A stretch of 64,000 nt of DNA from Candidatus Omnitrophota bacterium (lineage in GTDB: Bacteria > Omnitrophota > Gorgyraeia > Zapsychrales > Zapsychraceae). The stretch is from assembly GCA_029261055.1 (NCBI GenBank), contig JAJDCA010000071.1, forward strand, positions 89,778-153,777, read 5' to 3'. A program made the position numbers and the translations under genes. Positions 9,305 through 29,444 of this stretch are shown piece after piece; the first letter of the stretch is position 1; each line of letters opens with the position of its first letter. The notes beneath the pieces were generated by a model, which saw only the letters and a list, made by a program, of their open reading frames with translations, was not told the DNA's origin and did no database searches.

Positions 9305-9306
9305 GA

Positions 9307-9335
9307 TTGACAACGCATAATGTATGGTGTATACT
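9307..9335 (+). promoter_or_regulatory. Sigma70-like promoter for the VapBC-like pair
   Basis: TTGACA, 17-nt spacer, TATACT, about 20 nt upstream of the RBS GGAGGTGA. Confidence 0.55.
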
Positions 9336-9354
9336 TTAAATGGAGGTGATAAAA

Positions 9355-9600: not shown

Positions 9601-10000
9601 AATATTTATAGATACGGGAGGATGGGTTGGTTTATTTAATAAAAGAGATAAATTCCATCAAGGTGCCAGTCAAATATATAAGAAAATTAAAGCAAATAAA
9701 TTAGAAATATATACAAGTGATTATATTATTGATGAAACAGTTACGTTAATAAAAAGCCACAGCAATTCAGATGCGGCGATAAATGCAGGTAATGCACTAA
9801 TGCGTAGCCAGCTTGTGAATATTATCAATGTAGATGCGAATATATTTAATAAAACCTGGCTAAATTTTCAGAAATATAAAGATAAAGATTATAGTTTTAC
9901 AGATGTTTCAACAATTTCCATTATGCATGAATTAAAAATAATACATTTGTTCGCCTTTGATGATAACTTGATTAATTTTGGTTTTGTAAAGTATGCATAG
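9593..10000 (+). CDS. PIN-domain toxin (VapC-like)
   Basis: MNKIFIDTGGWVGLFNKRD has the PIN D-T/S-G acidic motif. A further acidic residue lies in IDETV, and the length is ~135 aa. The start overlaps the upstream antitoxin stop. Confidence 0.7.
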   Translation: MNKIFIDTGGWVGLFNKRDKFHQGASQIYKKIKANKLEIYTSDYIIDETVTLIKSHSNSDAAINAGNALMRSQLVNIINVDANIFNKTWLNFQKYKDKDYSFTDVSTISIMHELKIIHLFAFDDNLINFGFVKYA

Positions 10001-10239
10001 AATTTAAGGAAAGATATTCGTAACAAATTTCTTCGTAATTTTTCCTCCCCTTGCGCAAAATTAAGAGAAAAATTAAATATTTTTTTTTATTTTTTTGTAA
10101 CTATATGAAATAATTATAGGTACATTTCGTTGAAAAATCATCTGCGTGGTAATTTGTCCTTTGAATATGTTATACTTTTTGTACAAGTAAGCGTAGCAAT
10201 AATCCAACCAAGAATTTGTTAATATCGGATAAACAATAG

Positions 10240-13200
10240 ATGAACATCGCTATTCAAAAACAACGTACAAATTTATTTTATCGCCTCTTGTCCGCCTTTG
10301 TGGCTATGGCATTCTTAGTCACAACCATTGTGCCGACTGGTTTTGCCCAGGGCGTTATTCCATCCAGCCCTGCAACCACCCTGAACTTACCTATTCCCGG
10401 AACTATGGTAGGCATGAGTGAAGGGTTTACACCAGCGATGGTCAAGGGGCTGACAATCCACCCTGAAAATCCACTTTTGTTTGACTTTATTGTGGGAACA
10501 GGAGATACAAACTTAGATGGGGAGGCATTAAAGGAAGAATCGCGAAAATTAATTAAATATTTCCTTGCTTCTTTAACCGTGCCGGAGCAGGAAATGTGGG
10601 TTAACCTCAGCCCCTATGAAGCCGACCGCATTATTCCGGGAGGCTTGGGAGATACGGAGATGGGTCGGGATATGTTGGCTCAGGATTACCTGCTCAAACA
10701 ACTCACATCATCGCTGATGTATCCGGAGGACGAACTTGGCGAAGCATTTTGGGAACGGGTGCATGAAAGGGCTTACGAAGAATTTGGGACGACCGATATC
10801 CCGATGAATACGTTTAACAAAATCTGGATCGTGCCGGAAAAGGCTGTTGTTTACGAACATGAAGAAGATGCCAGCGCCTATGTGGTGGAGAGTCATCTGA
10901 AAGTGATGTTAGAGGAAGATTACGAAGCGTTGAACAAAAATAAAATCAACGCTGAGTCCCGAGCGACCCTCGATAATGATTCGTTGCGAGGGATTTCCAC
11001 GGAAATCATCCGTCAAATCCTTATCCCCGAAATCGAGCGTGAAGTCAATCAAGGCAAGACATTCGCCAATCTCCGCCAAATTTTCAACTCTATGATCCTG
11101 GCCACGTGGTACAAACAGAATTTAAAGCAAAGCCTTTTAGGGCAGGTGTATGTCGATCAAAACAAGACTAAGGGGGTCGACACGCAAGACAAAGCGGTCA
11201 CACAGAAAATTTATGATCAGTATATCGAAGCCTTTCGCAAAGGTGTTTATGATTACATTCGGGAAGATTACGATCCTGCCACCCAACAGATTATCCCACG
11301 CAAATATTTCTCAGGTGGGATTAAGGCCAATTTGGCTATGCTGGTTAAGCTTCAGACCATTAAGCCCGGGAATGATGTTTCCGTAGGAAATTTAGAAAAT
11401 TTGTTTTATGGGAACGAAGATACTTACAAACTTAGAACTGAGGTAACAGATTTAGGAATGGCATCAGAACCAATGGAGGTCATTAATAAAGCGGTTAAAA
11501 AAATCTCAGAATTGACAATTGAAAGTACGAAAAAAAGTGCTGGCCGTTTTAAAAGAAAGTTTGGAAAATTTAAAAAACAGGTTGTCTTTGCGTCAATCAT
11601 GACTGTCTTGTTTTTAGGATACATTCCCCTTTCATTGTACGCAAAAACATTTACTCAAGAAGAAGTGACGTCAAAATTTGCGCAGGGCATTTTAAGTCTT
11701 TCAGATCCTAATACGCGTATTCCTCCAAGTCATTTCGGCCATCCTGGATACGAAAATTTATCTTTTCTTTATGACCAAAGTATTAATCCTATGCTTCTGA
11801 AGGTCGCTGGTGATCAAGAAGAGGCAGAATATATAATTGATTATTTTACGCAAAGATTACATATCCCTTTAAGCGAAGTGATCAAGAATGCCAATTTAGA
11901 TGGAATATATGGGATATTAAAAACTTTAGAAGGGAATAAGGGCAGGAGTGAATTTGTTGTCAGTTTAATCAATGCTGTCGACCGTACGTCAACAAAACGT
12001 CAGGGACAGGGGTTGTTGGAATATTTGACAACCCCAGGGCCTATGTCTTTTATGATTCTTTCCATGATCAACGTTAATCCGGCAAAATATTTGACGGACG
12101 CTGTAACATTAGGTGAAGTTTTATTGTCTATGCGAAGATTTGACGGAGCTGTGATAGATGGTGATCGTTGGCCGAATAGAGTTCATACAGAACCCCATAT
12201 GGATGCCTTCGCTGCGTTTCTACAATTGTATCAGCTGACCCGTCAAAAACGATGGCTAGTGGCAGCTGAGCACGCCTATCAATGGTTTGAAACGAATGTT
12301 TATCATCCAGGCAAAGGTGAAATTTACCAGGGGATATGGGAAACAGGGCCAAGTACCATTTTTGCCACGGATGCGTATTCCTGGACAATGGCGGGACCCG
12401 CCGGAGATAGAATGTTTCTTGGAGATTTAGAAATATTTACAAATACAATGCTCACGAAAAGCCTTACACAGGTGACTTTAGAACTTCCCGATGGACAAAC
12501 AAAAACAATAATACTCGTTGATTTTACAGACCCGGGAAACGTGCACATGAAGATTACGGACCCTGATGCGCCTCAAGGTATGGTCGAGCGCGGAGGTTTT
12601 CATCCGATGGGCTCCATGGAATGGACCGGCGGGGTGATTCTGGCCTTACAAAAGAATGCCGTCCGGTTTTGGAATTCTGGCAAAGCGCATCATCAAGAAA
12701 CAGCCCAATTTTATAAAGGCTTGGCCGAACTTCTTATCAAAGAGTCCCTTCAGGGATTTTATGAGTTGGAAGGATTAGAAGGTTTGCTAACCTTTTATGC
12801 GACGGGACAGGGTGTGCCTGTAGGTCATGGCTGGGACACTCCTTTTTATAATGTTAATGGTAAATCCGGTCAAACTATCCGAGGAGGGAGCCCTGTTGGG
12901 GGTTGGCCGATATTACCTATGAACGGAGTGAATCCTTTCATTTTTAATGACAATTACAAAAAAGATTACGATAAGATTTCCATGAATACAGAGGCAAAGC
13001 AAAAGGCCCAAAAATATGTAAATAAAATAGTGGCGAATCGTTTTTTTCGAGAGAGTGTTCCCACAGAGACCCCGGAAGCAGCGACTCAAATTGTGGAACC
13101 GGGAAATTTTAATCTTCAAATGTGGGGGGCATTTAATAGAGGAGATTATCGAGAGGCCATTCGTTGGGCGGAAAAAGTGGTGGGTGATCCTGAATGGGTT

Positions 13201-16200
13201 CGTTTGGCGCAAAGGGATCAAAAACACAAAGCACAGAATATTGGAGGACTTGTGCGTTATAGATGGGGGGTATCACCAAGCCTAGTTCCCCAAGCAGAAT
13301 CCGCTATTTGGCGGTATCCACTCTTAAACGAGATGGGGGCGGCGATGTGGGGTCTGGCCGCTTCGCATTATGAATTAGGGAATACAAAAGAAGTTAAGAA
13401 ATGGATGCGCCGTATTATTGAGGAAATTCCATATCATCAGATTTACGCCCCCAGTGGCCCTGGGTATTGGAACGCCCTGATTTCCTGGCAATATAATCCG
13501 GGAGGACATCATCGAGATAGGAAGATGGGTGTTATTTATAAACAGGTTTTAAGCGAGATGGGCCTACGTTCTGCAGCCCCCAAAGAAGTTTCGGTTCGGG
13601 GAAAGGCATTTACTTCATCATCGAAAGATACGCAAAGGGAATCAGGTATTGAAGAAAGAGTTACGCCGCCTCATCCAAAGCTTTCTTCAGATGGATCTAA
13701 AATAGATCGAGAAATTATTTCTTATCTCCAACAGCTCACGATTGCTGATCCTCATGCAGCTAAAAATAGCCGTTCATTTAAAAGAATTGAAAATATGGGA
13801 GAGGAGGCCGTTCCTTCATTGATCAGGATTGTCCAAAAGCATGAAGTCGAAGGTGACCCGCTTAAATGGGCAGCATATCTATTGGGCGTTATTGGTGATG
13901 AAAAGGTTAGGCCGGTTATTGAAAGCATTATTAATGATTCTTCTTATCCTTGGTATGTCCACACAGAAGCAAGAAATGGGCTTAATATTTTGAAACAAAA
14001 ATATCAAGGTCAAAAGGGAGGAGACCTTGATTCTGTTGAGCCCGGAGTTGATCAAAAGGTTGTTTCTTATCTTGAACAACTGACAATTCCCGATCCTAAC
14101 GCGGCTAAGTATAGTCAGCCATTTCGGGCCATTGTAAATATGGGAGAAAAGGCTGTTCCTACGTTGATCAGGGTTGTCCAAAATCGTGAAATTGTAGGTG
14201 ACCCGCTTAAGTGGGCGGCATATTTGTTGGGGGTTATAGGAGATGAAGAAGTTGAGCCAGTTCTTCAGAGGGTTATTAATGATTCTTCTTATCCTTGGTA
14301 TGTCCAAACAGAAGCAAAGAATGGATTACGGGTATTAAACCGCAGGCTTGATAATTCCATGATGGGTATGTCCCTTCGACAGAAACTAACTTTTGTCATT
14401 GCATGGTTTCTGGTTCTATTCTCTCCGGATAATGTATCGTCTTCAAATTTGTTTGAGTCTTTACACGCAAAGAGAGCTAAGGATATTCGTGAAGAATTTC
14501 CTTACACAAAAAAGGAGTTTGAGGCAATTGTGCAGGAGGTGATGAAAGCTATTGAGAGAAAATATGTTACAGGCGCAGGGAGTAATGTAGGCATATCGAG
14601 AGTTGAAGAGAAAAGAGGGGACTTTAAATCATGGGTCATCAAACAAATTCTTTTGGTATCGGAAGGGGAAGGTGGAAAGGGGGTGGATGGAGAAAAAGAG
14701 AGTGAATCGGAAGGATATAAATCTATGTCCGATAAAGTAGAACGTATTCGTACACTGATTAAAGATGGAGAATATCAAGATGTGATTAATATTTTTGATA
14801 ATCGCTCCTCGTCCCGGTATTCTAAAAAAGGTGATGATCCTAGTATTGATGAATTATTAGAATTTGCTCCGGATCTTGTTTTAGAGTTACTGAGAAATTA
14901 TTTTGATCAAACCGTCGAATTAATTTTACGTAAAGCAGATCATGGGAATGCGATAAGTGAATTTATTAGTAGTCTGATAGAAAAGCCTGAAGGAATTCCT
15001 TTTGCCATAGATATTATACAATATCTTAAGAACAAATTTAAATTGCTGAAGAAGGTAAATGGAAGTTATCCTGTACCCGATAAGGAACCAGTTATAGTTA
15101 TGCAGAAAGGTGAGCAATTATATTCTGAGACGATTCAAAATATATTGAAGAATTTATTTTATAAAAGTAAAATAATGGGAAGTTTACAGGGAGCAAGCCA
15201 GGAATTTTATAATGCCTTGGGCAAGGAATTTGGAACAGATTGGGTGTCTTTGTGGGAGGCAAAGGTTTTGCAACCTCAGTTGAACCGTGACATTGAACAA
15301 ATGAAATTAGCGATTGCAGATACCAATTCGCAAATCTCAACTAAATTATCAACGATCGCGAAAGAATTGATTGTAGTTCCAACGGAGGTTGGGAGTAAGT
15401 TTGATAATCGGAAAGAGATGCTGGATAAGAATTTGGGAGAAATAAAACAAAATTTAAATTCTTTAAGTACGGCCTTACGCAATCAGAGCGATAAAATATT
15501 CGAAGTAACTGAGTTGAATAAGTTTGCTAACCGTGCTGATTTGCTTATTCCGTGGTTGCATGCTTATAGAGTTAATTATTATTTAAGTGGACCTATTTTT
15601 TTGGACACTTATATGAGTAATTTTTCGGAAATACGCGGGAAATTCATGCACAGGGCTTTTGAATTGAGAGAATTTGCAAGGCAAAGAGGCATTCTTGCAG
15701 ATATCGCATCATATTATATTTTTATAGAAAAGGAGATTTCTGAGTTAATAGAATTATCAAGGGATGGGAAAGATTTTGATAAAAATTCCATAACACACAG
15801 TGAGTTCTTGAAAAAAATCGGTTTAGCATATTATGAGTTTTGGGAAATAAAGGGGGAGAATAATTATTTAGGTCTTGCCGAGGATTATAAAAATCAGTTT
15901 TATGATAGGCTAGAAGAAGAAACAGGAAAGCATTATGAGAGGTTGGATGTGATTGAATTTTATGCATCTTTACAAGAAGGTTCAGATGAGCTGGGAATCC
16001 TGGCAGGGAGATTGAAAGATGATCGTGTGCAAAGTATTAAAAAAGTTTTTACTTCGGGACTTCCTCCTGTTTTTGCTGCATCGCTTGAGATCGTTAGTTA
16101 TGACCCAGAGAAAACATTGAAAGAAATAAAAGCTATTGCTGAAAAAATATTAAAAAATTACGCAATGGTGAGTAAGAAAAGTATTAAAAATTATTTGGAA

Positions 16201-16905
16201 ACAGAGGGATATGATAATCTTTTAATGTGGTTAAGGAATATCAAGAATGATAGACAACGCCCAAGGTTTATTCATGGTAGCAATACGAAAAATGTAACAA
16301 AATTATTAGAATGGTATTTTGCGCGTGAAGAATGGGAGCTCAGTAAAGAACATAAAGATGGAAACAAGGAAAAGATTTTTGAGAAGTATAAAGATATCAT
16401 TAATGATTTGGATCCTTTTAGTAAGCTGAGAATGGAGATAGTTGGGGTGTTAAAGAAAATGGGGATTAATGATTCTAATTTTATGGAACATAGAGAGTAT
16501 ATATTAGAAGTGGCGAAATCTATTCATGATGCGAGAAATGCATCGCAAGATACTGATGAGGCCATGATGGTCAATAAAGAAAATTTTGGCGGTATCAACC
16601 TTGACCCTGCCATGTTGGACTTACAAATTAAACGCGATGGCAAGGGGGTGCCGTTGCCGGTGGGGGATCAGGATTTTTCCATGATGCACATTCAAGGATT
16701 TTTGCCGATTATTATTAATGTGACGCCAGTTTCGCTGCCGGCCCTGCTTGGCTTTGTGGATACTTTACCTGGCGAACAGACGGGTTTGCCTGTGGCGAGC
16801 TCTGGTGGATTAGTGGGTGATGTTAGCTTGTGGCTTGAGGATTGGAATAGGTTCTTGCTGCGGCAGGATGACGACATTTCTGTATTAAGCCTTCGATATG
16901 GTTAA
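10240..16905 (+). CDS. Giant multidomain protein (2221 aa) of unknown function
   Basis: Uninterrupted 6.6-kb ORF. Predicted signal peptide or anchor (LLSAFVAMAFLVTTIVPTGFAQG), a TM helix near aa 445-465, two ~115-aa tandem HEAT-like repeats, and a long K/E-rich C-terminal half. The N-terminal ~320 aa and C-terminal ~100 aa are paralogous to ORF 24209-27634. Confidence 0.9.
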   Translation: MNIAIQKQRTNLFYRLLSAFVAMAFLVTTIVPTGFAQGVIPSSPATTLNLPIPGTMVGMSEGFTPAMVKGLTIHPENPLLFDFIVGTGDTNLDGEALKEESRKLIKYFLASLTVPEQEMWVNLSPYEADRIIPGGLGDTEMGRDMLAQDYLLKQLTSSLMYPEDELGEAFWERVHERAYEEFGTTDIPMNTFNKIWIVPEKAVVYEHEEDASAYVVESHLKVMLEEDYEALNKNKINAESRATLDNDSLRGISTEIIRQILIPEIEREVNQGKTFANLRQIFNSMILATWYKQNLKQSLLGQVYVDQNKTKGVDTQDKAVTQKIYDQYIEAFRKGVYDYIREDYDPATQQIIPRKYFSGGIKANLAMLVKLQTIKPGNDVSVGNLENLFYGNEDTYKLRTEVTDLGMASEPMEVINKAVKKISELTIESTKKSAGRFKRKFGKFKKQVVFASIMTVLFLGYIPLSLYAKTFTQEEVTSKFAQGILSLSDPNTRIPPSHFGHPGYENLSFLYDQSINPMLLKVAGDQEEAEYIIDYFTQRLHIPLSEVIKNANLDGIYGILKTLEGNKGRSEFVVSLINAVDRTSTKRQGQGLLEYLTTPGPMSFMILSMINVNPAKYLTDAVTLGEVLLSMRRFDGAVIDGDRWPNRVHTEPHMDAFAAFLQLYQLTRQKRWLVAAEHAYQWFETNVYHPGKGEIYQGIWETGPSTIFATDAYSWTMAGPAGDRMFLGDLEIFTNTMLTKSLTQVTLELPDGQTKTIILVDFTDPGNVHMKITDPDAPQGMVERGGFHPMGSMEWTGGVILALQKNAVRFWNSGKAHHQETAQFYKGLAELLIKESLQGFYELEGLEGLLTFYATGQGVPVGHGWDTPFYNVNGKSGQTIRGGSPVGGWPILPMNGVNPFIFNDNYKKDYDKISMNTEAKQKAQKYVNKIVANRFFRESVPTETPEAATQIVEPGNFNLQMWGAFNRGDYREAIRWAEKVVGDPEWVRLAQRDQKHKAQNIGGLVRYRWGVSPSLVPQAESAIWRYPLLNEMGAAMWGLAASHYELGNTKEVKKWMRRIIEEIPYHQIYAPSGPGYWNALISWQYNPGGHHRDRKMGVIYKQVLSEMGLRSAAPKEVSVRGKAFTSSSKDTQRESGIEERVTPPHPKLSSDGSKIDREIISYLQQLTIADPHAAKNSRSFKRIENMGEEAVPSLIRIVQKHEVEGDPLKWAAYLLGVIGDEKVRPVIESIINDSSYPWYVHTEARNGLNILKQKYQGQKGGDLDSVEPGVDQKVVSYLEQLTIPDPNAAKYSQPFRAIVNMGEKAVPTLIRVVQNREIVGDPLKWAAYLLGVIGDEEVEPVLQRVINDSSYPWYVQTEAKNGLRVLNRRLDNSMMGMSLRQKLTFVIAWFLVLFSPDNVSSSNLFESLHAKRAKDIREEFPYTKKEFEAIVQEVMKAIERKYVTGAGSNVGISRVEEKRGDFKSWVIKQILLVSEGEGGKGVDGEKESESEGYKSMSDKVERIRTLIKDGEYQDVINIFDNRSSSRYSKKGDDPSIDELLEFAPDLVLELLRNYFDQTVELILRKADHGNAISEFISSLIEKPEGIPFAIDIIQYLKNKFKLLKKVNGSYPVPDKEPVIVMQKGEQLYSETIQNILKNLFYKSKIMGSLQGASQEFYNALGKEFGTDWVSLWEAKVLQPQLNRDIEQMKLAIADTNSQISTKLSTIAKELIVVPTEVGSKFDNRKEMLDKNLGEIKQNLNSLSTALRNQSDKIFEVTELNKFANRADLLIPWLHAYRVNYYLSGPIFLDTYMSNFSEIRGKFMHRAFELREFARQRGILADIASYYIFIEKEISELIELSRDGKDFDKNSITHSEFLKKIGLAYYEFWEIKGENNYLGLAEDYKNQFYDRLEEETGKHYERLDVIEFYASLQEGSDELGILAGRLKDDRVQSIKKVFTSGLPPVFAASLEIVSYDPEKTLKEIKAIAEKILKNYAMVSKKSIKNYLETEGYDNLLMWLRNIKNDRQRPRFIHGSNTKNVTKLLEWYFAREEWELSKEHKDGNKEKIFEKYKDIINDLDPFSKLRMEIVGVLKKMGINDSNFMEHREYILEVAKSIHDARNASQDTDEAMMVNKENFGGINLDPAMLDLQIKRDGKGVPLPVGDQDFSMMHIQGFLPIIINVTPVSLPALLGFVDTLPGEQTGLPVASSGGLVGDVSLWLEDWNRFLLRQDDDISVLSLRYG
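13720..14345 (+). repeat. 345-bp (115-aa) tandem repeat inside the giant ORF encoding HEAT-like units
   Basis: SYLQQLTIADPHAAKNSRSFKRIENMGEEAVPSLIRIVQ...GDPLKWAAYLLGVIGDEKV...SSYPWYVHTEARNGL is repeated as SYLEQLTIPDPNAAKYSQPFRAIVNMGEKAVPTLIRVVQ...WYVQTEAKNGL. The second copy is partial. Confidence 0.85.
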
Positions 16906-17062
16906 TAAAAGTCGCGTAAGCGTATATCATTGAGCCTGTTCCAAGCGTTGATGTTTTACAGACAATATTTCTATTTTATTTTTTACAAATTTTTTTTCAC
17001 GTTGGCAAAAATAACGGCAGAATAGGTCCCGCCGCATTAAATCATTTTTTACGTTAATATAT

Positions 17063-17092
17063 CTTGAACCTTAAGGTTTTTAAGGTACAATA
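17063..17092 (+). promoter_or_regulatory. Sigma70-like promoter upstream of the ROK kinase gene
   Basis: TTGAAC, 16-17-nt spacer, TACAAT; ends about 10 nt before the ATG region. Confidence 0.4.
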
Positions 17093-17098
17093 TCAGTT

Positions 17099-18025
17099 AT
17101 GAAAAAATATACTTTAGGTATTGATGTGGGGGGGACTAATATCAAGCTGGGATTGGTTAGTTCTGTTGGAAAGGTTGTTTCCAGAACTTGTTTAGATACA
17201 AGCAGTTTTAAGTCTAATAAGAATAAATTTATCCAGGGGATTGCTTTAGCTGCAGATGAATTAATGGAAGAAACCAAAATAAATCGGAAGGATATTTTGG
17301 GAGTGGGGGTTGGATTGCCAGGGCTTGTTGATCCAGTTAAAGGTGTGGTTAATTTTTTACCGAATATTTCAGGTTGGAAGAATATTCCATTCAAGAAACT
17401 TCTCCAAGATGAGCTCAAAATTCCTACCGTTATTGATAATGACGTTAACCTTGTTACTTTAGGCGAATGGCAATTCGGCGCCGGAAAAGGGTACAAAAAT
17501 TTTGTCTGTATAACATTAGGTACAGGAGTAGGAAGTGGTTTGGTATTAAATAATGATTTATACCGAGGAGAAGGAAACGTGGCTGGCGAATTAGGGCATA
17601 TACCCATTAATGAAAAAGGGCCTAAGTGTTCATGCGGAGGATGGGGTTGTTTTGAAAGTTATGTGGGTAATCAATATCTTATAGAAAAGGGATCAAAGAT
17701 ATTCAAAAATAAAAACATACAGTTGGAAGATGTTTTTAATTTGGCGAATCATGACAATGTGCGGGCTGTTCAATTTTGGGATGAAGTGGCTACGCATACA
17801 GGCAATGTTTTGGTTGGCATTATAAATTTGCTAAATCCAAGGTTGATTATCATTGGAGGCGGTGTTTCCAATAGTTATAAATATTTGGGTGCTACGATTA
17901 ATAAAATTGTCAAACAACGTGCTATGAAAATTCCAGCTTCTATGGTCAAAATTGTTAAGGCTAAATTAGGTGATGATGCCGGTCTTATTGGGGCTCATGT
18001 CTTGGTTAAGGAACGTAGTCGTTGA
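17099..18025 (+). CDS. ROK-family sugar kinase (glucokinase-like)
   Basis: N-terminal LGIDVGGTNIKLGLV ATPase motif and the ROK zinc motif CSCGGWGCFE. Confidence 0.85.
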   Translation: MKKYTLGIDVGGTNIKLGLVSSVGKVVSRTCLDTSSFKSNKNKFIQGIALAADELMEETKINRKDILGVGVGLPGLVDPVKGVVNFLPNISGWKNIPFKKLLQDELKIPTVIDNDVNLVTLGEWQFGAGKGYKNFVCITLGTGVGSGLVLNNDLYRGEGNVAGELGHIPINEKGPKCSCGGWGCFESYVGNQYLIEKGSKIFKNKNIQLEDVFNLANHDNVRAVQFWDEVATHTGNVLVGIINLLNPRLIIIGGGVSNSYKYLGATINKIVKQRAMKIPASMVKIVKAKLGDDAGLIGAHVLVKERSR

Positions 18026-20160: not shown

Positions 20161-20181
20161 GAGAGAAAGGATTATTCTAAA

Positions 20182-21492
20182 ATGAACATAGCTATAGTAG
20201 GTTCTGGATATGTAGGGCTAGTCACAGGAGTATGTTTGGCCCATATCGGACATAAAGTTGTTTGTGTTGATGTTGACCGTGAGAAAATAAGAAAACTTCG
20301 TTTAGGTAAGGTTCCTATTTATGAGCCGGGGCTGGAAGAATTATTAAAAAAATATTTAAAAAATAAAAAACTTTCTTTTACTTGGGCGATAAAAGAGGCG
20401 GCTAAGAAATCTGATGCAATTTTTATTGCCGTTGGTACACCTTCGAAAAAGAATGGCGATGCCGATTTAACTTATGTTGAAAATGTTGCGCGGGAAATTG
20501 CTTTGAGTATGGATTCGTATAAACTTATTATTGAAAAATCAACGGTGCCGGCAGAAACAGGTAAGCGTATCGCGCGAACTATCCGGATGAATTTACCCAA
20601 GAATAAAAAATCTATTCCGGATTTTGATGTGGCTTCTAACCCTGAATTTTTACGAGAGGGCTCGGCGATTAAAGATTTTATGAACCCGGACAGAGTGGTT
20701 ATTGGGGTGGAATCTAAAAAAGCTGAACGGATTTTGCGGGAAATTTATAAACCGTTAAAACCACATATGGTTGTTACTAACATTAATTCTGCTGAGTTGA
20801 TTAAACATGCCTCAAATTCTTTTCTGGCAACGAAAATATCTTTTATCAATGCAATTGCGCAAATTTGTGATCATCTCGGAGCTGATGTTCTTAAAGTCGC
20901 TGAAGGAATGGGCTTTGATAAGCGAATTGGTCGGAGTTTTTTAGACGCGGGGATTGGTTACGGAGGCAGCTGTTTCCCGAAAGACGTTGACGCCTTTGTT
21001 CGTTTGAGTGAAAAAAGTGGCTACAATTTTAAACTTTTAAATGAAGTCAGGAGCGTGAACGAAGAACAGAAGGCATTTTTTGTTAGACTTATCGAGGATA
21101 AATTGTGGATCGTAAAAAATAAAGTGATTGGCGTATTAGGTTTGGCGTTTAAACCAAATACGGATGATATGCGTAATGCCCCATCTTTAGATATTATTAA
21201 AATGTTACAGCATGAAGGCGCTAAAATTAAAGCCTATGATCCTGTATCGATGGAAAATGCAAAGAAAATGATGAAGAAAATAACATACAGTAAGGATCCT
21301 TATGCCTTGGCAAAGGGATGTGATTGTTTGTTGCTCTTGACGGAGTGGGATGAATTTAAGCATTTGGATTTTAAAAAACTTGGAAAAGTGATGAGCCAGC
21401 CTATTTTGTTTGATGGGCGTAATATGTATCGTAAACAGGATTTTGAGAAATTAGGTTTTGAATATTATGGAATTGGCAGGGGAATGGTTTAG
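20182..21492 (+). CDS. ugd: UDP-glucose 6-dehydrogenase
   Basis: N-terminal Rossmann motif IVGSGYVGLVTG, the catalytic Cys region GGSCFPKD, and a C-terminal UDP-binding domain. Confidence 0.85.
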   Translation: MNIAIVGSGYVGLVTGVCLAHIGHKVVCVDVDREKIRKLRLGKVPIYEPGLEELLKKYLKNKKLSFTWAIKEAAKKSDAIFIAVGTPSKKNGDADLTYVENVAREIALSMDSYKLIIEKSTVPAETGKRIARTIRMNLPKNKKSIPDFDVASNPEFLREGSAIKDFMNPDRVVIGVESKKAERILREIYKPLKPHMVVTNINSAELIKHASNSFLATKISFINAIAQICDHLGADVLKVAEGMGFDKRIGRSFLDAGIGYGGSCFPKDVDAFVRLSEKSGYNFKLLNEVRSVNEEQKAFFVRLIEDKLWIVKNKVIGVLGLAFKPNTDDMRNAPSLDIIKMLQHEGAKIKAYDPVSMENAKKMMKKITYSKDPYALAKGCDCLLLLTEWDEFKHLDFKKLGKVMSQPILFDGRNMYRKQDFEKLGFEYYGIGRGMV

Positions 21493-21509
21493 GAGTATCA
21501 AAAAATATA

Positions 21510-21607
21510 AAAGAGGTAAGAAGTAAGAAATAAAGAGGCAGAGAAGCAAAAAATAAAAATTTTTTAGTTTTTTCTCTGCAACTTACTTCTTGCATCTTTA
21601 CCTCTTA
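21510..21607. repeat. Long imperfect inverted repeat (~35-bp arms) between ugd and the next dehydrogenase gene
   Basis: 5' arm AAGAGGTAAGAAGTAAG...GGCAGAGAAG is complementary to CTTCTCTGCAACTTACTTCTTGCATCTTTACCTCTT, with an A/T-rich loop AAAAAATAAAAATTTTTT. No T-tract follows the 3' arm. Confidence 0.55.
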
Positions 21608-21642
21608 GTTCGTTAAAGATTATTAAAAACAAGGAGCAGTCA

Positions 21643-22935
21643 GTGTCTCAAAAACTTAAACAGAAAATCGTAACAAAAAAAGCTAAAATTGCCGTTATCG
21701 GCTTGGGATATGTGGGGCTTCCTTTGGCTGTAAATTTTGCCAAGGCTGGGTTTAAGGTATTTGGTTTAGATAAAGATCAAGACCGTGTTGATCAAATTAA
21801 TGCGAAGAAAAGTTATATTCTCGATATATCTTCACGTGAGTTAGCCAATGTTGTGAATAAGGGGTTCTTTTCTGCGTTGACAGAGTTTGAGATCCTTAAA
21901 GATATGGATGCCATTCTTATTTGTGTACCCACACCGCTTAAGCGTAAATACACACCGGATATTACCTATATCGTTAGTGCCGTCAGGACGATTAGAAAGT
22001 ACATGAAAAAAGATACGTTGATTATCTTGGAAAGTACGACTTATCCAGGGACAACCGAGGAGTTGATTAAGCCTGAGTTGGAAAAGGGGGGTATGAAGGC
22101 GGGTAAAGATTTCTTTCTTTCTTTTTCACCTGAACGTATTGATCCCGGTAATAAAAAATATGATGTTACCCGCATACCTAAAGTGGTAGGTGGTTTTTCT
22201 GAGAAAAGCGGCGAATTAACCAAGGTTCTTTATGAAAAAATTATTAATCAAGTGCATTTGGTGAGTTCCGCCAAAGCCGCCGAAATGACCAAGCTTTTGG
22301 AAAATACGTTCCGCATTATCAACATTGGATGGGTGAATGAGGTAGCGATGATGTGCCACAAAATGGGTATTAATGTCCGTGAAGTTATTGAAGCCGCTAA
22401 AACGAAGCCGTTTGGTTATATGCCGTTTTATCCGGGACTTGGTGTTGGTGGGCATTGTATTCCGGATGATCCTTTGTATCTTTATTGGAAGGCCAAGCAT
22501 GAGGGATTCAGTTCTAAGTTTATTAAGTTGTCGGCAGATATTAATTCGCATATGCCGCAATATGCTTTAGATCATCTTCAGAAGGTTTTAAAGGGGTCGT
22601 TTAAGCGTAAGAAGTTGCTTATTGTTGGTGTGACTTATAAAAAAGATGTCAAGGATTTACGAAAATCACCTCCTTTAAAATTGATTGAGCTTTTGAAAAA
22701 TCAAGGATGTCAGGTGGATTATTATGATCCGATTATTCCCTTTTTGAATATCGGCAAGGTTCATCAAGATTCGATTGAGTTTAACAAGAAAAATCTGTCT
22801 TCTTATGATTGTGCTATTATTGCCGCAGATCACACAGACGTCGATTACACTGCACTTTTAAAACACTCCAAGCGTGTTTATGATGTTCTTGATGTGTATG
22901 CAGGAAATAAAAATAAAAAGATTATTAAGTTTTAA
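21643..22935 (+). CDS. UDP-N-acetyl-D-hexosamine dehydrogenase (WbpA/WecC/TviB family)
   Basis: GTG start with an AAGGAG RBS. Rossmann motif IAVIGLGYVGLPLA, catalytic Cys region GGHCIPDD, and a C-terminal UDP-binding domain. Confidence 0.8.
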   Translation: MSQKLKQKIVTKKAKIAVIGLGYVGLPLAVNFAKAGFKVFGLDKDQDRVDQINAKKSYILDISSRELANVVNKGFFSALTEFEILKDMDAILICVPTPLKRKYTPDITYIVSAVRTIRKYMKKDTLIILESTTYPGTTEELIKPELEKGGMKAGKDFFLSFSPERIDPGNKKYDVTRIPKVVGGFSEKSGELTKVLYEKIINQVHLVSSAKAAEMTKLLENTFRIINIGWVNEVAMMCHKMGINVREVIEAAKTKPFGYMPFYPGLGVGGHCIPDDPLYLYWKAKHEGFSSKFIKLSADINSHMPQYALDHLQKVLKGSFKRKKLLIVGVTYKKDVKDLRKSPPLKLIELLKNQGCQVDYYDPIIPFLNIGKVHQDSIEFNKKNLSSYDCAIIAADHTDVDYTALLKHSKRVYDVLDVYAGNKNKKIIKF

Positions 22936-22954
22936 TTCTAGGGAAGGGTAAGAA

Positions 22955-23902
22955 ATGGCTAAGCGAAAAAAAATAGTGGTGATTACGGGCGGGGCAGGAT
23001 TTTTAGGAAGTCATCTTTGCGATCGGTTTATTGGTGATGGGTTAAAGGTTTTTTGTGTGGATAATTTGATCACCGGAAGCATGAAAAATATCAAGCATTT
23101 AAAAAATGATAAGAATTTTGAATTTATTAAACATAATATTTCGCAAGAATTGTTTATTAAGGGGCCTATAGATTATGTGATGCATTTTGCCTCACCTGCC
23201 AGTCCGGTAGATTATTTAAAGCATCCAATCCCGACATTAAAGGTGGGTTCTTTAGGGAGTCACAATATGTTAGGGTTAGCCAAGTTGAAAAAGGCGCGAT
23301 ATTTGGTGGCGTCGACTTCGGAAGTTTACGGTGACCCTGAAGTTCATCCGCAAAAAGAAACTTATTGGGGAAACGTGAACCCGGTGGGGCCCCGCGGAGT
23401 TTATGACGAAGCAAAACGTTTTGCTGAAGCGATTACAATGGCGTACCGGACGTATCATAAAGTGGACACAAAGATTTTACGCATTTTTAATACCTACGGT
23501 CCGCGTATGCGGATTAATGATGGCCGTGTGGTGCCAAATTTTATTTATCAAGCTATGCACAATAAGTCTCTCACCATTTATGGTACAGGCAAACAAACGC
23601 GTTCTTTCTGTTATTATTCAGATTTAGTTGAAGGCATTGTGCGTTTGTTGCATTCTAATATTTCGGGTCCGGTTAATATCGGCAACCCGGATGAATTTAC
23701 CATTATGCAATTTGCTAAAATGGTCATCAAAATGTCAGATACCAAGAGCAAAATTATCTACAAATCTCTCCCCGTAGACGACCCAAAGCAGCGCAAGCCA
23801 GATATTACGCTAGCCAAAAAACACCTTAAATGGACCCCAAAAGTCAAGTTGGAACAAGGTCTTCGTGATACCATCGACTGGTTTGAAGAAAATATTTCTT
23901 AG
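22955..23902 (+). CDS. UDP-glucuronate decarboxylase (UDP-xylose synthase-like SDR)
   Basis: [14 protein letters not shown]-binding motif, a YDEAKR catalytic motif, and overall UXS/ArnA-C-like layout. Located downstream of ugd. Confidence 0.75.
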
Positions 23903-24208
23903 GATTTTGTTTTAAATCATCCTTTGTGGGAAAATTAAGAAATTACTTTTAGAAAAAGTTGTAACTTGTTGCTATATAACGAATTAAATTTCTGCTGTGC
24001 TCTTGCCGATTGCAAAGAATATGTTATCCTTCCTGTATAAACGTTAAGAAACCGTTTTTATCATTTAAATCCACCAATATTCGCCTGTTTTTCAGCAAGT
24101 GATCCAGCCACGGATTGGTACTTCAACAACATTAAAACTGTAGATTGTAATTTTATTGGCTCAGTACAAGTTACTCATAAATTACACATCTCAAATGGGA
24201 GTATCGCT

Positions 24209-27200
24209 ATGTTTTTTTTAGAAAATAACCGCAAAAATGGTTTGTATCGTGTATTTTCAGTATTTTTAGTATTTGCATTCATATTTACCAGTATTATTCC
24301 TCCTAGTTATGGGCAAAATGCTCCACAAACTATATTAAATTTACCTATTCCAGGGGCATTTGTGTCATCTACCGATGTATTTTATCCGGCGATGGTTAAA
24401 GGTATAACCCTCCACCCTGAAAATCCGTTGCGGTTTGATTTTGTGGTGGATACTGGTGCAACTGGCATGAAACGAGCGGATGTATTAAACGCAGAAATTA
24501 CCAAGCTAGTGAAATATTTTTTGGCTTCGTTGACAGTTCCCGAGAAAGAAATGTGGGTCAACTTGAGTCCCGATGAGCCGGACCGAATTATTGCCGAAGG
24601 GCTTGGTAGAACGGATATGGGGCGGGATATGTTGGGGCAGGATTATATGCTCAAGCAGCTTACCGCAAGTTTGATGCATCCGGAAGAAGATTTAGGTCAA
24701 GAGTTTTGGAATCGTGTTTACGCCCGTGCGCAAGCCGAATACGGAACGACCGATATTCCGATGGATACCTTTCACAAAGTCTGGATTGTACCCGAGAAGG
24801 CCGTCGTGTACGAGCATGAAGAGACGGCCACGACGTATGTGTTAGAGAGTAGGTTGAAGGTTATGTTGGAGGAAGATTATCTCGCCGCGTCCAATAACGT
24901 AGGGGCGAATCCACGTATTCGCCCAAATCAAGGGCGAAAACAGGGTTTCGCCCCTACGACATCCATCATCCGTGAAATCCTCATCCCCGAAATCCAACGC
25001 GAAGTCAACGAAGGATCAACTTTCGCCAATCTCCGCCAGATCTACCATTCAATGATCCTCGCCGCGTGGTACAAACGAAGCCTGAAACAGTCTCTGCTTG
25101 GCCAAGTCTACGTCGACCAAAACAAAACCAAAGGCATCACCACCGAAGACGAACACGTTACGCAAAAAATTTACGATCAATATATTGAATCCTTCAAAAA
25201 AGGCGTTTACGACTACATCAAAGAAGATTACGACCCAACGACAAATCAAATCATCCCCCGCAAATACTTCTCCGGTGGGTTTGCCGCGGATTTCTCGATA
25301 TTGCGCGCATTAAAATCATCAATTACCAGGATAGCCCCCACTCAAATATTTTCAGACGAAGACAACGCCATCCTAAGCGCCCAATTCGATTTAGCAAGTT
25401 TGGGAAAAAAGACTGATCTATCCTTTTTGGACTCAGCCATGAAGACGGAGCGAGAAGCGTTGAAGAAAGCTCTACGGAAAAAAGTTGTGCAGAATTTTAA
25501 AGGGTTACAGGGTAAAGGTCATATTAATATTTTGTGGGTCGAAGATGACGAAGAATTGACTGATGCATATAAAAAAGAGCTAGAAAATGATAAATATAAA
25601 ATAGAGTGGATTAAAAGTGGAGAAGACGCTTGGCAATATGTCCGGAATAATTATGCAGAAATTGACCTTATTATTACGGATTTAGACTTAGATGGAGAAA
25701 TGTCAGGATCAGATTTAATTGATGAGTTAAACAATGAAAAAAATAACGAAGTGTCTATCATTCCTATCCTTATACTAACAGCAGGGCAAGCTGTAGGGGC
25801 CTTAAGGGGGCCTTTAAAAAGAGCTACGAATAATTTTATCGAAATTTTTCGAAAGGTTGGAAGAATTAGCGAATATATAGCAAAAGTCAAAAATTTCATC
25901 GAAAATCCTCCGGATGATTTGTCGATGATGGTTAGGGGGGGTAATAAGGGGGGTGGAATAGATTTTTTTAAGGTGAGCGGAGAGGTAAGAAAAAAAATAT
26001 ATCAATTAAAAAATCAATATGCGGATACGACGGATTATACGATTACACAAGGCACTTTTGGGTATTCAAGAAAAGAGAATAGTAATAAAAGTTTTGTGGC
26101 GATTACCCCTGATGATTCAGGAAATAGTTTGATTTATGTTCAGCAGGAAAGAGGGAGGAAAGTTTTTGTGTTTCAGGGGCGTGTGCCTAGTGAGTCTGGT
26201 CTTTCAGCGTGGGAACCTGAAGGAAGGCAGATACAAAGCGTGAAAGAGGTGGAGATTGCCTTAGAGGATTTTATTCGAGGACGAAAATCTAAATTAGCAG
26301 AGGAAAAACTTAAGACGGAGGCGCGTGAAAAAGAATTGGATGCTCTTGCGAGAGAAGAACGTATACAAGACAAGCAAGACAATCCTCTTGCTTCGGTTGC
26401 AGAGATTTTTACAGAAATGAATCCCACAAAAAAAGAACATAAATATACCGTTATAACGGTAAAAGGAGAAGTTTCTTATGAAGGATTTGTGTATGAAAAA
26501 AAACCTTATCCAGGCGCCGATGAGATGTATTACGGCTTAGTTGCCTACCAGTATTACGATGAGATTTATATCAAGAAGGGATATATTAAAAAAAGATTTT
26601 TTAATGAATTGGGTCCTGAAGCAGATCCTTATTATTCACTTTTTCCGCATGAAAATTTGACGGAAAAAGTATATTGGGCTCTTGATAATATAGATCAACA
26701 AAAGGTTCAGGGCATCATTAAAGAATTTATTGAAGAGCAAGATGTTCTACGTAATCAGCCTGAAAAGGAAATAGAGTTTGTGAAAATTCAGCCTTCAAAT
26801 GAAAAGAGGGAAAAAAAGGTTCGAAATGTTAAAGGTGATGTTCCGAAGAAAAAGATTGTGAATATGAATAAAATTAAAAAGGATCTCGAGGCAGGCCGTA
26901 TCGCAGAGGTATTACAAGATTTTAAGGAGGATGAGTTTTACGCTATAAAAGGTTTTTTTATAGACGAAAAAGACCGAGACGAAAATGCTTCTTCTGTCGG
27001 TAATTCTATTGGTTGGCTATTTGTTTATTTTCTGGAATACCTTCGCAATGAATATGCCGGTTTTGAGTATCCAAAGTATATAAAAATAGGATACAACCTA
27101 AATAAAGTAAGTGGTGATGATGAAAGTAGCTTTATGAGTGAGTTTTATGAGGGGGTTGAAGAGTACTTAGAAAAATATAAGGCTCCTTTACAAAAATCTA

Positions 27201-27634
27201 ATTTTTTAGATAAAAATCCTTTAGGAGATAGGAAAAAGTATGCTCTTGCAGATAATCATCCATATATAAATATTAGAAAGTATTTTCAATTTGTAGACGA
27301 GGCAATGTTAAATATAGACGATAAGAAAAGCCTTGGCGGGATTAACTTGGACGCGGCGATGTTGGATTTGCAGGTGAGACGTGATGGTAACGGAGTGCCG
27401 TTGCCGTTTTCATTGCAGCCGGCGGATTTGGGGATGCGGGTTCAGGGGTTTTATCCGATTCTCAACAGTGTGACGCCAGTCACTTTGCTGCAGCTTGGAT
27501 TGAATAGTCCAGTTGGTGCGCCTCCACCGGAAGATGCTTCCTCTGCGAAAGATGCGTCTACCTTTCTGGATTTAAGCTATTCCTTCACCACCAAAACCCG
27601 CGATCCGTGGGATAGGGTTATATTTTATGTATAA
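24209..27634 (+). CDS. Giant-protein paralog (1141 aa) with an embedded CheY-like receiver domain
   Basis: Signal peptide or anchor, then a ~320-aa module about 65-70% identical to the N-terminus of ORF 10240-16905. A receiver-like segment (ILWVEDDEELTD...LIITDLDLDGEMSG...IPILILTA) spans about 25525-25870. A coiled-coil K/E-rich region follows, then a C-terminal module shared with the first giant ORF (GGINLDAAMLDLQVRRDGNGVPLP...). Confidence 0.9.
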   Translation: MFFLENNRKNGLYRVFSVFLVFAFIFTSIIPPSYGQNAPQTILNLPIPGAFVSSTDVFYPAMVKGITLHPENPLRFDFVVDTGATGMKRADVLNAEITKLVKYFLASLTVPEKEMWVNLSPDEPDRIIAEGLGRTDMGRDMLGQDYMLKQLTASLMHPEEDLGQEFWNRVYARAQAEYGTTDIPMDTFHKVWIVPEKAVVYEHEETATTYVLESRLKVMLEEDYLAASNNVGANPRIRPNQGRKQGFAPTTSIIREILIPEIQREVNEGSTFANLRQIYHSMILAAWYKRSLKQSLLGQVYVDQNKTKGITTEDEHVTQKIYDQYIESFKKGVYDYIKEDYDPTTNQIIPRKYFSGGFAADFSILRALKSSITRIAPTQIFSDEDNAILSAQFDLASLGKKTDLSFLDSAMKTEREALKKALRKKVVQNFKGLQGKGHINILWVEDDEELTDAYKKELENDKYKIEWIKSGEDAWQYVRNNYAEIDLIITDLDLDGEMSGSDLIDELNNEKNNEVSIIPILILTAGQAVGALRGPLKRATNNFIEIFRKVGRISEYIAKVKNFIENPPDDLSMMVRGGNKGGGIDFFKVSGEVRKKIYQLKNQYADTTDYTITQGTFGYSRKENSNKSFVAITPDDSGNSLIYVQQERGRKVFVFQGRVPSESGLSAWEPEGRQIQSVKEVEIALEDFIRGRKSKLAEEKLKTEAREKELDALAREERIQDKQDNPLASVAEIFTEMNPTKKEHKYTVITVKGEVSYEGFVYEKKPYPGADEMYYGLVAYQYYDEIYIKKGYIKKRFFNELGPEADPYYSLFPHENLTEKVYWALDNIDQQKVQGIIKEFIEEQDVLRNQPEKEIEFVKIQPSNEKREKKVRNVKGDVPKKKIVNMNKIKKDLEAGRIAEVLQDFKEDEFYAIKGFFIDEKDRDENASSVGNSIGWLFVYFLEYLRNEYAGFEYPKYIKIGYNLNKVSGDDESSFMSEFYEGVEEYLEKYKAPLQKSNFLDKNPLGDRKKYALADNHPYINIRKYFQFVDEAMLNIDDKKSLGGINLDAAMLDLQVRRDGNGVPLPFSLQPADLGMRVQGFYPILNSVTPVTLLQLGLNSPVGAPPPEDASSAKDASTFLDLSYSFTTKTRDPWDRVIFYV

Positions 27635-27706: not shown

Positions 27707-27934
27707 ATGGTTCGATTAAATATTACTATGCCGGAAGATTTGGATCAGCGGTTAAGGAGGGTCAAAAATAAGAGTCGTTTTATTGCCTTAGCCGTGAGGG
27801 AGAAGTTTCAAAAAGAAGAAAAAGCAAAGTTGCAGGCTTTGATGATTGAAGGGTATAAAGCGATGGCAGCAGAAGATCAGGACATTAATCAAGAATGGGA
27901 AGAAACAATGCTGGAAGATGGGTTGGATTTATGA
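27707..27934 (+). CDS. RHH/MazE-like antitoxin
   Basis: 75-aa protein with a strong RBS. MVRLNITMPEDLDQRLRRV fits the ribbon-helix-helix pattern. Its stop overlaps the downstream toxin start (ATGA). Confidence 0.55.
   Translation: MVRLNITMPEDLDQRLRRVKNKSRFIALAVREKFQKEEKAKLQALMIEGYKAMAAEDQDINQEWEETMLEDGLDL

Positions 27935-28397: not shown

Positions 28398-29444
<1,047 letters not shown>

Follow-up and report, generated by a model that had tools for sequence, protein, structure and literature searches.

Omnitrophota are widespread uncultured nanobacteria that have many long proteins and may live as predators or parasites. The stretch of DNA considered in the present study, hereafter the window, comprises 64,000 nucleotides of a Candidatus Omnitrophota contig (JAJDCA010000071.1, positions 89,778 to 153,777) and contains two large open reading frames (ORFs), listed as ORF1 (10240-16905, 2221 aa) and ORF2 (24209-27634, 1141 aa). 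The question raised by this locus is why two proteins should resemble each other at both ends and nowhere between, and what the common ends may be for. The pair had been pointed out in a sequence-only reading, made from the letters and the ORF translations, which gave the coordinates of both genes exactly; both are on the + strand. ORF1 and ORF2 belong, as old paralogues, to a very large Omnitrophota protein family that has not been described before; its architecture, size, distribution and central variability, as well as the absence of known homologues, are established in the present study. The epithet "giant", applied to both proteins in the earlier reading, is a relative term, as members of the family span ~420 to ~5,000 aa.

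Common ends and unrelated centres of ORF1 and ORF2

The BLASTP comparison of the two proteins revealed an N-terminal match with 236 of 372 residues identical (63%, E 3e-150) and a C-terminal match with 35% identity over 181 aa (E 3e-18). No further segment was better than E ~3, and the centres are therefore considered unrelated. The cores of the two matches, as found by tblastn, are 68% identical over 327 aa (the N-module) and 58-59% identical over 56-59 aa (the C-module), and a tblastn search with the isolated modules placed each of them exactly twice in the window. The combination of common ends with unrelated centres is real and far beyond chance. Thus, the paralogy proposed in the sequence-only reading, with its conserved N-terminal module and dissimilar centres, is borne out by both searches. 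The C-terminal module, described there as ~100 aa long, is indeed shared, but its strongly conserved part amounts to ~55 aa followed by a variable tail.

The "long runs of identical DNA" mentioned in the same reading were not confirmed: at the DNA level, the two N-modules agree at 65-69% of positions, the longest stretch without a difference measures 17 nt, and the third codon base agrees at only 49% of identical residues. Such low agreement indicates old paralogues kept alike by selection on the protein and not by recent DNA exchange. The pairwise identity of N-modules has a median of 57% between genomes and 60% within a genome; together with the DNA divergence, these medians speak against recent gene conversion or cassette exchange, which was considered and rejected. 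The narrow plateau of N-module identity, combined with the unrelated centres, indicates a strong common constraint and fits selection by a common partner.

Neither module matches Pfam-A (2025 copy) or NCBIfam (2026), even at E<=1-10, profile searches of PDB sequences with the N-module gave no match, and neither module has a relative of solved structure. The modules, which the sequence-only reading could not assign, thus belong to no described family. They are also not described in the available parts of Seymour et al. 2023 and of the two preprints on long Omnitrophota proteins (10.1101/2023.11.21.568195; 10.64898/2026.06.07.730766). The AlphaFold2 model of the N-module (pLDDT 82, pTM 0.82, alignment of 95 sequences) has a mixed alpha/beta structure, in which six or seven long helices pack against a pair of long beta-hairpins; the module is predicted with confidence to be an autonomous fold of ~313 aa. 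The Foldseek search with the N-module against PDB and BFVD returned nothing at E<0.01, and a relationship to alpha pore-forming toxins of the ClyA type (MakA/NheA/ClyA) was dismissed because the Foldseek E-values and TM-scores were at noise level. Aromatic, Gly/Pro and charged residues make up most of the conserved positions. No Cys, His or Ser is invariant in the N-module alignment, which leaves no obvious hydrolase triad.

The C-module (~55 aa) has the consensus GGIDxNPxxLxLxIxRDGxGxxLP...IxGFxPVIINxTPVxNLPxLLG and includes a Pro-rich hydrophobic stretch of ~17 aa. It is followed by a tail with a median of 27 aa; of 60 tails, 38 are net acidic, and of the 59 that are not empty, 14 end in Asn, commonly as ...LN. 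When the family member P0028 (649 aa) was modelled over its full length, the N-module was again confident and the C-module unstructured (pLDDT 45-57), which suggests a linear signal or a peptide folding on binding, and not a part of the N-module fold. For the same reason, a flagellin-like arrangement with both modules folding together and the cargo as an insertion was put aside, the paired alignment being shallow and the negative weak. The region after FSGG ('GGIKANLAMLVKLQ' in ORF1) was also tried as a degenerate copy of the C-module and rejected, having given 44 matches compared with 40 in shuffled controls.

Layout, distribution and cargo of the family

The word-indexed search with residues 1-375 of ORF1 (signal peptide and N-module) yielded 1,440 homologous clusters, and an exhaustive phmmer search with residues 40-375 against 1.84 billion representatives found the N-module in 8,064 cluster representatives at E<=1e-3 and in 6,232 at E<=1e-30. 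The 150 best matches are 420-4,969 aa long; in all of them, the N-module match starts at about residue 33-75, and earlier only in N-terminally truncated entries. Nearly all family representatives are labelled Omnitrophota, and the closest relatives of the N-module, 50-75% identical, come almost exclusively from metagenome-assembled genomes labelled Candidatus Omnitrophota/Omnitrophica, which by itself makes the origin of the window from this phylum very probable. An exact search for the ORF2 sequence in public assemblies gave no record. The scan of one genome per GTDB species confirmed at least 580 copies, with several per genome. One domain of ~313 aa and one motif of ~55 aa thus tag thousands of otherwise unannotatable proteins and provide a simple countable handle. 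Profile models of both modules would improve the annotation of Omnitrophota genomes and would flag calls of phosphoglycerate kinase (PGK), enolase and GAPDH made on fused, signal-bearing copies.

Some contigs with family members (P0045, P0118, P0139, loci L001 and L002, and others) are labelled Heimdallarchaeota, Nanoarchaeota, Bathyarchaeia or "uncultured Planctomycetales". Since the family is otherwise confined to Omnitrophota, these contigs look mis-binned or mislabelled, and the N-module could mark taxonomic labelling errors.

The layout was examined in the 80 best loci (titled Omnitrophota/Omnitrophica, "uncultured Planctomycetales" or "bacterium"), where all ORFs were translated and searched with profiles of both modules. 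The N-module was found in 105 ORFs and the C-module in 75. Seventy of the N-module ORFs have their end within a locus; among these, the C-module precedes the stop codon by 0-91 aa in 62, is found in an adjoining ORF after an apparent frameshift split in three, and is lacking in five, so both modules are present in ~93% of complete members. The ORFs with the C-module only all begin at a locus edge or follow a frameshift split. Family genes often stand in tandem, in arrays of two to four (L023, L026, L047, L073), and some shorter gene-called homologues not labelled partial (e.g. P0064, P0056, P0104, P0119) carry the N-module only. ORF1 and ORF2 follow the same rule, with the N-module within ~75 aa of the start and the C-module ~0-90 aa from the stop. 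As read from the sequences, the general plan of the family is a putatively cleavable Sec-type signal peptide, the N-module ~4 residues on, a disordered linker, a passenger of ~0.3-4.5 thousand aa, the C-module and a tail.

Short stand-alone C-module "proteins" were rejected as a class, since, of five that were inspected, four seem to be the ends of family genes that had been split or truncated. Only P0211 looks genuine, and its context is repeated in a second locus (L082:1551-1790), the two assemblies being independent.

The signal peptide was analysed in 89 gene-called homologues, 82 of which show the full pattern, namely an n-region with a net charge of +3, an uncharged core of ~18 residues and a Pro-rich c-region, with the cleavage pattern (A/V/S/G)-x-A↓Q. 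Ala occupies position -1 in 75 of the 82 sequences and Gln position +1 in all 82, and the N-module starts ~4 residues past the predicted cut. The sites GFA↓QG of ORF1 and SYG↓QN of ORF2 fit the family pattern, and both proteins have the features of Sec substrates of signal peptidase I. The signal peptide or anchor assigned to both ORFs in the sequence-only reading therefore turned out to look like a cleavable Sec signal of a family-wide type. The charge of +3 before the core and the neutral region after it predict the N-in/C-out orientation, and we infer from the pattern both export and cleavage at A↓Q. Most members, including ORF2 and the fusion of GAPDH, PGK and enolase described below, have no second hydrophobic segment before the cargo. 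A transmembrane candidate 60-90 aa past the N-module was found in ORF1 and in five of 62 other complete members (~8%), and part of ORF1 may consequently return to the cytoplasmic side.

The sequence-only reading proposed to check in related genomes whether the termini are kept when the centres vary. In the related loci, the ends are conserved and the centres vary enormously: of the 12,432 directed pairs formed by 112 central regions, only 97 gave any BLASTP match at E<1e-5. The centre of ORF1 has no match among the other centres and that of ORF2 has one weak match. A partner covering at least 50% of the centre was found for 16 of the 112 centres, and these look like orthologues.

The Pfam census of cargo, made on 38 complete members, includes the metabolic enzymes PGK, enolase, phosphoglucomutase, PPDK, starch synthase and UDP-glucose pyrophosphorylase. 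The remaining cargo comprises receiver domains, PP2C, several methyltransferases, CofD, GT2, metallophosphatase, HEAT and mTERF, and further gene-called homologues carry NUDIX, PGI, PGK or ankyrin repeats. Two members contain glycolytic enzymes in series between the modules (L062 and L025, Table 1). Their enzymes have intact signature motifs and full-length profile coverage (343-359 bits for PGK), and pathway calls for these two genomes may rest on the fused copies. By local comparison, the fused PGKs share 38-43% identity among themselves and 34-38% with a stand-alone Omnitrophota PGK; the search for homologues of the fused PGK was filled with ordinary PGKs at ~40% identity. In locus L068, stand-alone PGK (398 aa) and TPI (261 aa) genes (L068:3809-5788) lie directly downstream of a family gene (L068:157-3708), so at least some genomes keep ordinary copies beside the family. 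A stand-alone GAPDH gene (28431-29444) also follows ORF2 in the window.

Possible role of the terminal modules

The cargo proteins of the type IX secretion system (T9SS) combine a cleavable Sec signal and diverse passengers with a conserved C-terminal domain (CTD) occurring on many paralogues per genome, and the genes of the machinery need not be neighbours of the cargo genes. The family described here resembles them in the Sec signal, the diversity of passengers, the conserved module at the extreme C-terminus and the many paralogues, and it too would need no machinery gene beside each cargo gene. However, the CTD folds as a beta-sandwich of ~80-100 aa and is confined to Bacteroidota and their relatives, whereas the C-module of ~55 aa is predicted to be unstructured; T9SS cargo also has no common N-terminal domain. 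No match of ORF1 or ORF2 to Por_Secre_tail or TIGR04183-type CTDs was found in Pfam and NCBIfam at E<=1. The GlyGly-CTERM/rhombosortase, PEP-CTERM/exosortase and LPXTG/sortase systems likewise place a short C-terminal signature with a hydrophobic stretch on many unrelated exported proteins, and GlyGly-CTERM proteins such as VesB are substrates of the type II secretion system (T2SS). In these systems, the motif is followed by a transmembrane helix and a basic tail of a few residues, in contrast to the Pro-rich stretch of ~17 aa and the mostly acidic tail with a median of 27 aa found here, and no NCBIfam CTERM model matches ORF1 or ORF2.

Autotransporters and inverse autotransporters are large, numerous and similar to the family in having a signal peptide, a conserved terminal module and a variable passenger. 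Their beta-barrel of 250-300 aa is absent, the N-module being mixed alpha/beta and the C-module only ~55 aa long, and ORF1 and ORF2 match no Pfam type V barrel. In cellulosomal enzymes, a signal peptide and an enzyme passenger are followed by a docking module of ~60-70 aa at the C-terminus, and one interaction gathers many enzymes. In the family, the putative receptor and ligand would be on one chain, the cargo is glycolytic, glycogen-related or signalling instead of polysaccharide-degrading, and Dockerin_1 gave no match in the C-terminal 144-151 aa of either ORF (Pfam, E<=10). Flagellins have both ends conserved around a freely variable and even enzymatic centre, so the layout, which the sequence-only reading had not seen described, has a precedent. 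Flagellins differ in having no Sec signal and in termini that form a joint coiled coil, while here the N-module is predicted to fold alone and the C-module is not predicted to pack; no flagellin profile matched. In polymorphic toxins and contact-dependent inhibition (CDI) systems, a conserved N-terminal delivery region is joined to a variable toxin, with an immunity gene alongside, and the variable part is C-terminal and not central as in the family, which also has metabolic or signalling cargo and no conserved neighbour; there was no PADLOC match, and CDI-type features were not found. The type I secretion adhesins of the RTX/LapA kind lack a Sec-type signal, which the family bears, and have RTX nonapeptide repeats and a C-terminal secretion signal; no RTX/HemolysinCabind match was found in ORF1 or ORF2 (Pfam). 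A signal peptide, a passenger and a conserved terminal signal together make a known kind of solution, and the tested defining features of the known systems are not those of the family.

The closest parallel comes from the same phylum. As far as the available parts of the two sources go, the giant Omnitrophota proteins ("Archaeovorins" and the dockerin type; West-Roberts et al. 2023 preprint, 10.1101/2023.11.21.568195; 2026 complete-genome preprint, 10.64898/2026.06.07.730766) carry TIM, PGI, FBPase, PGM, aldolase, PPDK, starch synthase, receiver and ROK domains, and their N-terminal regions "generally lack identifiable domains". The predicted extracytoplasmic location of this cargo also puzzled those authors. 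According to the same parts, the giants share with the family the phylum, the unusual cargo themes and the association with T2SS/pilus genes, but differ in size (10-147 thousand aa against 0.4-5 thousand aa) and in having many transmembrane helices and SecA-DEAD or C39 domains, whereas the family is mostly without internal transmembrane segments. Pfam searches found no SecA-DEAD, C39 or dockerin/TSP3 domain in ORF1, with its one transmembrane candidate, or in ORF2, which has none. The similar cargo themes suggest a related phenomenon.

The conserved signal, the invariant terminal modules, the unrelated passengers, the many paralogues and the lack of a conserved neighbour together suggest two "handles" read by a shared, unlinked machinery. 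We tentatively favour the reading in which the two modules act as common signals that dock or sort exported passengers at the envelope. Sec would move the protein across the cytoplasmic membrane, and the two modules would then serve as common handles for shared, single-copy envelope machinery. The N-module may be a docking, anchoring or secretion-recognition domain, and the unstructured C-module a C-terminal sorting or docking peptide; these roles are proposed from the features listed above. Many different passengers could be kept on the cell envelope, or freed from it, by one route. A candidate for this route is an apparatus similar to the T2SS or to type IV pili (T4P), for instance that encoded by the cluster 16 kb downstream of ORF2; the available parts of the two preprints link long Omnitrophota proteins with T2SS/pilus genes (10.1101/2023.11.21.568195; 10.64898/2026.06.07.730766). 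If the modules are sorting or docking signals, they would define a new protein-sorting route and supply a ready list of substrates for the whole phylum.

Several observations weigh against this reading. The passengers are of cytoplasmic type (two GAPDH with PGK and enolase, PGM, PPDK, S-adenosylmethionine (SAM) methyltransferases, PP2C, NUDIX and receivers) and depend on ATP, NAD+ or a cytoplasmic kinase, none of which would be expected in the periplasm or the medium. It remains unexplained why enzymes dependent on ATP, NAD+, nucleotide sugars or SAM, and a kinase-dependent receiver, should stand behind a Sec signal with no intervening transmembrane segment. The C-module does not have the layout of motif, transmembrane helix and basic tail of the known sortase-type signals, and P0211 is a stand-alone C-module ORF of 79 aa without a signal peptide. 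Clustering of the neighbours in the 80 loci found no partner gene conserved beside the family genes, and a dedicated machinery gene in that position was rejected on this ground. The cargo paradox might be resolved by metabolism outside the cytoplasm, by delivery into another cell, by a moonlighting role as adhesins or by a signal that belies its sequence. Should the cargo really be active beyond the cytoplasm, glycolytic enzymes with Sec signals would challenge the assumed site of central metabolism.

The cargo is best explained by the main rival of the docking or sorting reading, in which an uncleaved N-terminal anchor or further undetected transmembrane segments tether the passengers, perhaps as a metabolon, at the cytoplasmic face of the producer's own membrane. 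The passengers are enzymes of the ordinary cytoplasmic kind, whose motifs are intact and whose profile matches run over the full length, the transmembrane candidate of ORF1 and of ~8% of complete members would return the chain to the cytoplasm, and P0211 has its C-module without any signal peptide; moreover, the 2026 preprint, in the part available, interprets many of the long Omnitrophota proteins as anchored in the membrane, with domains in the cytoplasm. This reading nevertheless contradicts the evidence from the signal peptide: the charge distribution predicts N-in/C-out, the -3/-1 pattern with the invariant Gln at +1 is a textbook signal-peptidase I site, and most members, the L062 fusion and ORF2 among them, have no second hydrophobic segment before the cargo. 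It is regarded as unlikely. The cytoplasm-type passengers behind a secretion signal could also be effectors or metabolic hijackers, guided by the modules after Sec passage through a pilus/T2SS-like or contact-dependent route and acting in the cytoplasm of the host or prey. Omnitrophota have been inferred to be host-dependent or predatory nanobacteria, with ATP/ADP translocases reported in some genomes of two classes (PMC10066038), and the window contains a T2SS/T4P cluster. Housekeeping glycolytic enzymes would be odd in this role, no toxin or immunity signature was found by PADLOC and Pfam, and no route is known by which Sec-exported proteins of 1-5 thousand aa enter the cytoplasm of another prokaryote. 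Effector delivery is considered improbable.

A low probability is also given to head-to-tail self-assembly, in which the N-module as a receptor would bind the C-module of another member in trans, in a cohesin-dockerin-like manner, and link the many paralogues into a coat or lattice of enzymes outside the cytoplasm. Self-assembly and effector delivery are variants of the docking or sorting reading that the data do not tell apart. In ~93% of complete members, a domain large enough for a receptor is accompanied by a C-terminal peptide of ~55 aa, about the size of a dockerin, both are conserved across all paralogues and do not co-diverge, consecutive pathway enzymes are found in the family, and an extracellular "coat" was proposed for Velamenicoccus (PMC10066038). 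Pfam, however, reveals no dockerin or cohesin, some complete members do without the C-module, and this module is not ordered in the monomer model, which says nothing on binding in trans. The comparison made in the sequence-only reading, with polymorphic or cassette-type surface systems, would have the central cargo swapped between conserved ends by recombination; this idea accords with the unrelated centres and the tandem arrays and is largely refuted by the rest of the data. The N-modules of ORF1 and ORF2 share no identical DNA tract longer than 17 nt at 65-69% identity, N-module identity within a genome is no higher than between genomes, 16 of 112 centres are conserved between genomes, and no silent or promoterless cassettes, recombinase or immunity genes recur nearby in the 80 loci. 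Exchange of this kind is very improbable; the family is an old, strongly constrained multigene family and not a switching system.

A broader extension of the docking or sorting reading is doubtful, if conceivable: a phylum-specific export or display system, based on a new N-terminal fold and a new C-terminal signal, might place complete cytoplasm-type modules (enzymes of lower glycolysis and of glycogen and nucleotide-sugar metabolism, receivers) outside the cytoplasmic membrane, as an enzyme coat or delivered to the host or prey for its metabolites, in the course of an epibiotic or predatory life.

Feature coordinates and genomic neighbourhood

Table 1. Features of ORF1, ORF2 and their surroundings in the window, and members of other loci mentioned in the text.
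Feature	Coordinates	Strand	Remarks
GAF-GGDEF gene	6798-8156	+	Diguanylate cyclase upstream of ORF1
GGDEF gene	8288-9304	+	Diguanylate cyclase upstream of ORF1
Upstream element GAATATGTTATACTTTTTGTA	10163..10183	+	57 nt before ORF1 start; reads as extended -10 promoter (TGnTATACT)
ORF1	10240..16905	+	Signal peptide, N-module, candidate transmembrane helix, unrelated passenger, C-module, tail
ORF1 signal peptide, aa 1-36	10240..10347	+	Predicted signal-peptidase I site GFA↓QG; putative cleavage
ORF1 N-module, aa 48-360	10381..11319	+	LNLPIPG to PRKYFSGG; 68% identical to ORF2 module
ORF1 candidate transmembrane helix, aa 447-468	11578..11643	+	Kyte-Doolittle 2.0-2.1; ~87 aa past N-module
ORF1 HEAT-like tandem duplication, aa 1159-1273 and 1274-1369	13714..14346	+	64% identity over 103 aa, E 3e-52
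ORF1 C-module, aa 2117-2171	16588..16752	+	GGINLD to PIIINVTPVSLPALLG; matches profile built from other members
ORF1 variable C-terminal tail	16753..16905	+	50 aa plus stop codon
Upstream element GAATATGTTATCCTTCCTGTA	24017..24037	+	172 nt before ORF2 start; pattern as upstream of ORF1
ORF2	24209..27634	+	Signal peptide, N-module, receiver, unknown centre, C-module, tail
ORF2 signal peptide, aa 1-35	24209..24313	+	Predicted cleavage site SYG↓QN
ORF2 N-module, aa 43-357	24335..25279	+	BLASTP/tblastn match to ORF1 module
ORF2 receiver domain, aa 441-529	25529..25795	+	PF00072, E 7.8e-12, 45.8 bits vs cut-off 30.2
ORF2 C-module, aa 1043-1097	27335..27499	+	GGINLD to PILNSVTPVTLLQLG; matches profile from other members
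ORF2 variable C-terminal tail	27500..27634	+	44 aa plus stop codon
RHH-like antitoxin ORF, 75 aa	27707-27934	+	Recognised by eye; overlaps MazF/PemK gene directly after ORF2
MazF/PemK toxin gene	27895-28278	+	Pairs with RHH-like ORF
ATPase with c-di-GMP-binding MshEN domain	43304-44938		T2SS/T4P-like cluster
GspF/PilC-like gene	44958-46157		T2SS/T4P-like cluster
c-di-GMP-I riboswitch	46372-46455	+	61 bits vs gathering score 35
Small protein with prepilin N-methylation motif	46548-46967		Directly downstream of riboswitch
PilN-like gene	47074-48600		T2SS/T4P-like cluster
Secretin	49650-51050		T2SS/T4P-like cluster
L062 fusion, 2,991 aa	L062 7905-16877		Ca. Zapsychrus exili, JAVCCJ010000022.1; GAPDH, GAPDH, PGK, enolase, aldolase-II-like region between modules
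L025 fusion, 2,819 aa	L025 4181-12637		PGK and enolase between modules
P0211	L081:6001-6240		Ca. Aceula meridiana, JAVCDE010000033.1; between era and YjeF_N gene

The signal peptide of ORF1 has a K/R-rich n-region, a hydrophobic core at residues 16-33 and the A↓Q site. The candidate transmembrane helix behind its N-module has no counterpart among the internal segments of ORF2. The HEAT-like repeats noticed in ORF1 by the sequence-only reading are a true tandem duplication, although the HEAT assignment itself stays below the Pfam threshold (HEAT_2, 23.7 vs 27.7 bits); TPR is likewise sub-threshold. The rest of the ORF1 passenger consists of an unannotated region and a long K/E-rich stretch; residues 1421-2100 contain 10.3% K and 10.3% E. 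A short hydrophobic stretch, LTFVIAWFLVLF, occurs after the HEAT-like duplication and may or may not cross the membrane.

The receiver domain attributed to ORF2 was found above the Pfam cut-off, with the match spanning positions 1-82 of the 111 in the profile only, and NCBIfam response-regulator models match the same stretch. By eye, an acidic pocket (EDD), an Asp that is a candidate phospho-acceptor (ITDLD) and a Thr (ILTAG) can be made out, whereas the conserved Lys was not recognised.

The element GAATATGTTATnCTTnnTGTA precedes both family genes in the window. Allowing up to three mismatches, the pattern has three matches in the window versus 0.08 expected, the pattern having been derived from these two sites. 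The 8-mers TTATACTT and TATACTTT are enriched 22-24 times upstream of 48 family genes in other genomes. The element reads as an extended -10 promoter and is probably generic; its interpretation as a family-specific regulatory site was therefore abandoned.

Directly upstream of ORF1 (6798-10000 region), a PIN-domain gene accompanies the two diguanylate cyclase genes. Between ORF1 and ORF2 lie a ROK kinase gene, LptD, two genes of the UDP-glucose/GDP-mannose dehydrogenase family and an epimerase gene. The envelope genes that the sequence-only reading described as bracketed by the pair are thus really there, but the flanking looks incidental. The commonest neighbour of family genes is a receiver-EAL protein, present in ten of the 80 loci; these neighbours and the cyclases upstream of ORF1 give a weak hint of a link to cyclic di-GMP (c-di-GMP) signalling.

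The T2SS/T4P-like cluster occupies positions 43304-53319. With the MshEN domain in its ATPase and the riboswitch before the prepilin-like gene, the expression of the pilus or pseudopilus in this cluster may be under double c-di-GMP control.

The window has ~39% G+C, and nearly all its genes are on the + strand. Almost all ORFs of at least 120 aa have this orientation, and the cumulative GC skew rises monotonically over positions 1-64000, which together fit a very strong gene-strand bias in a single leading-strand replichore.

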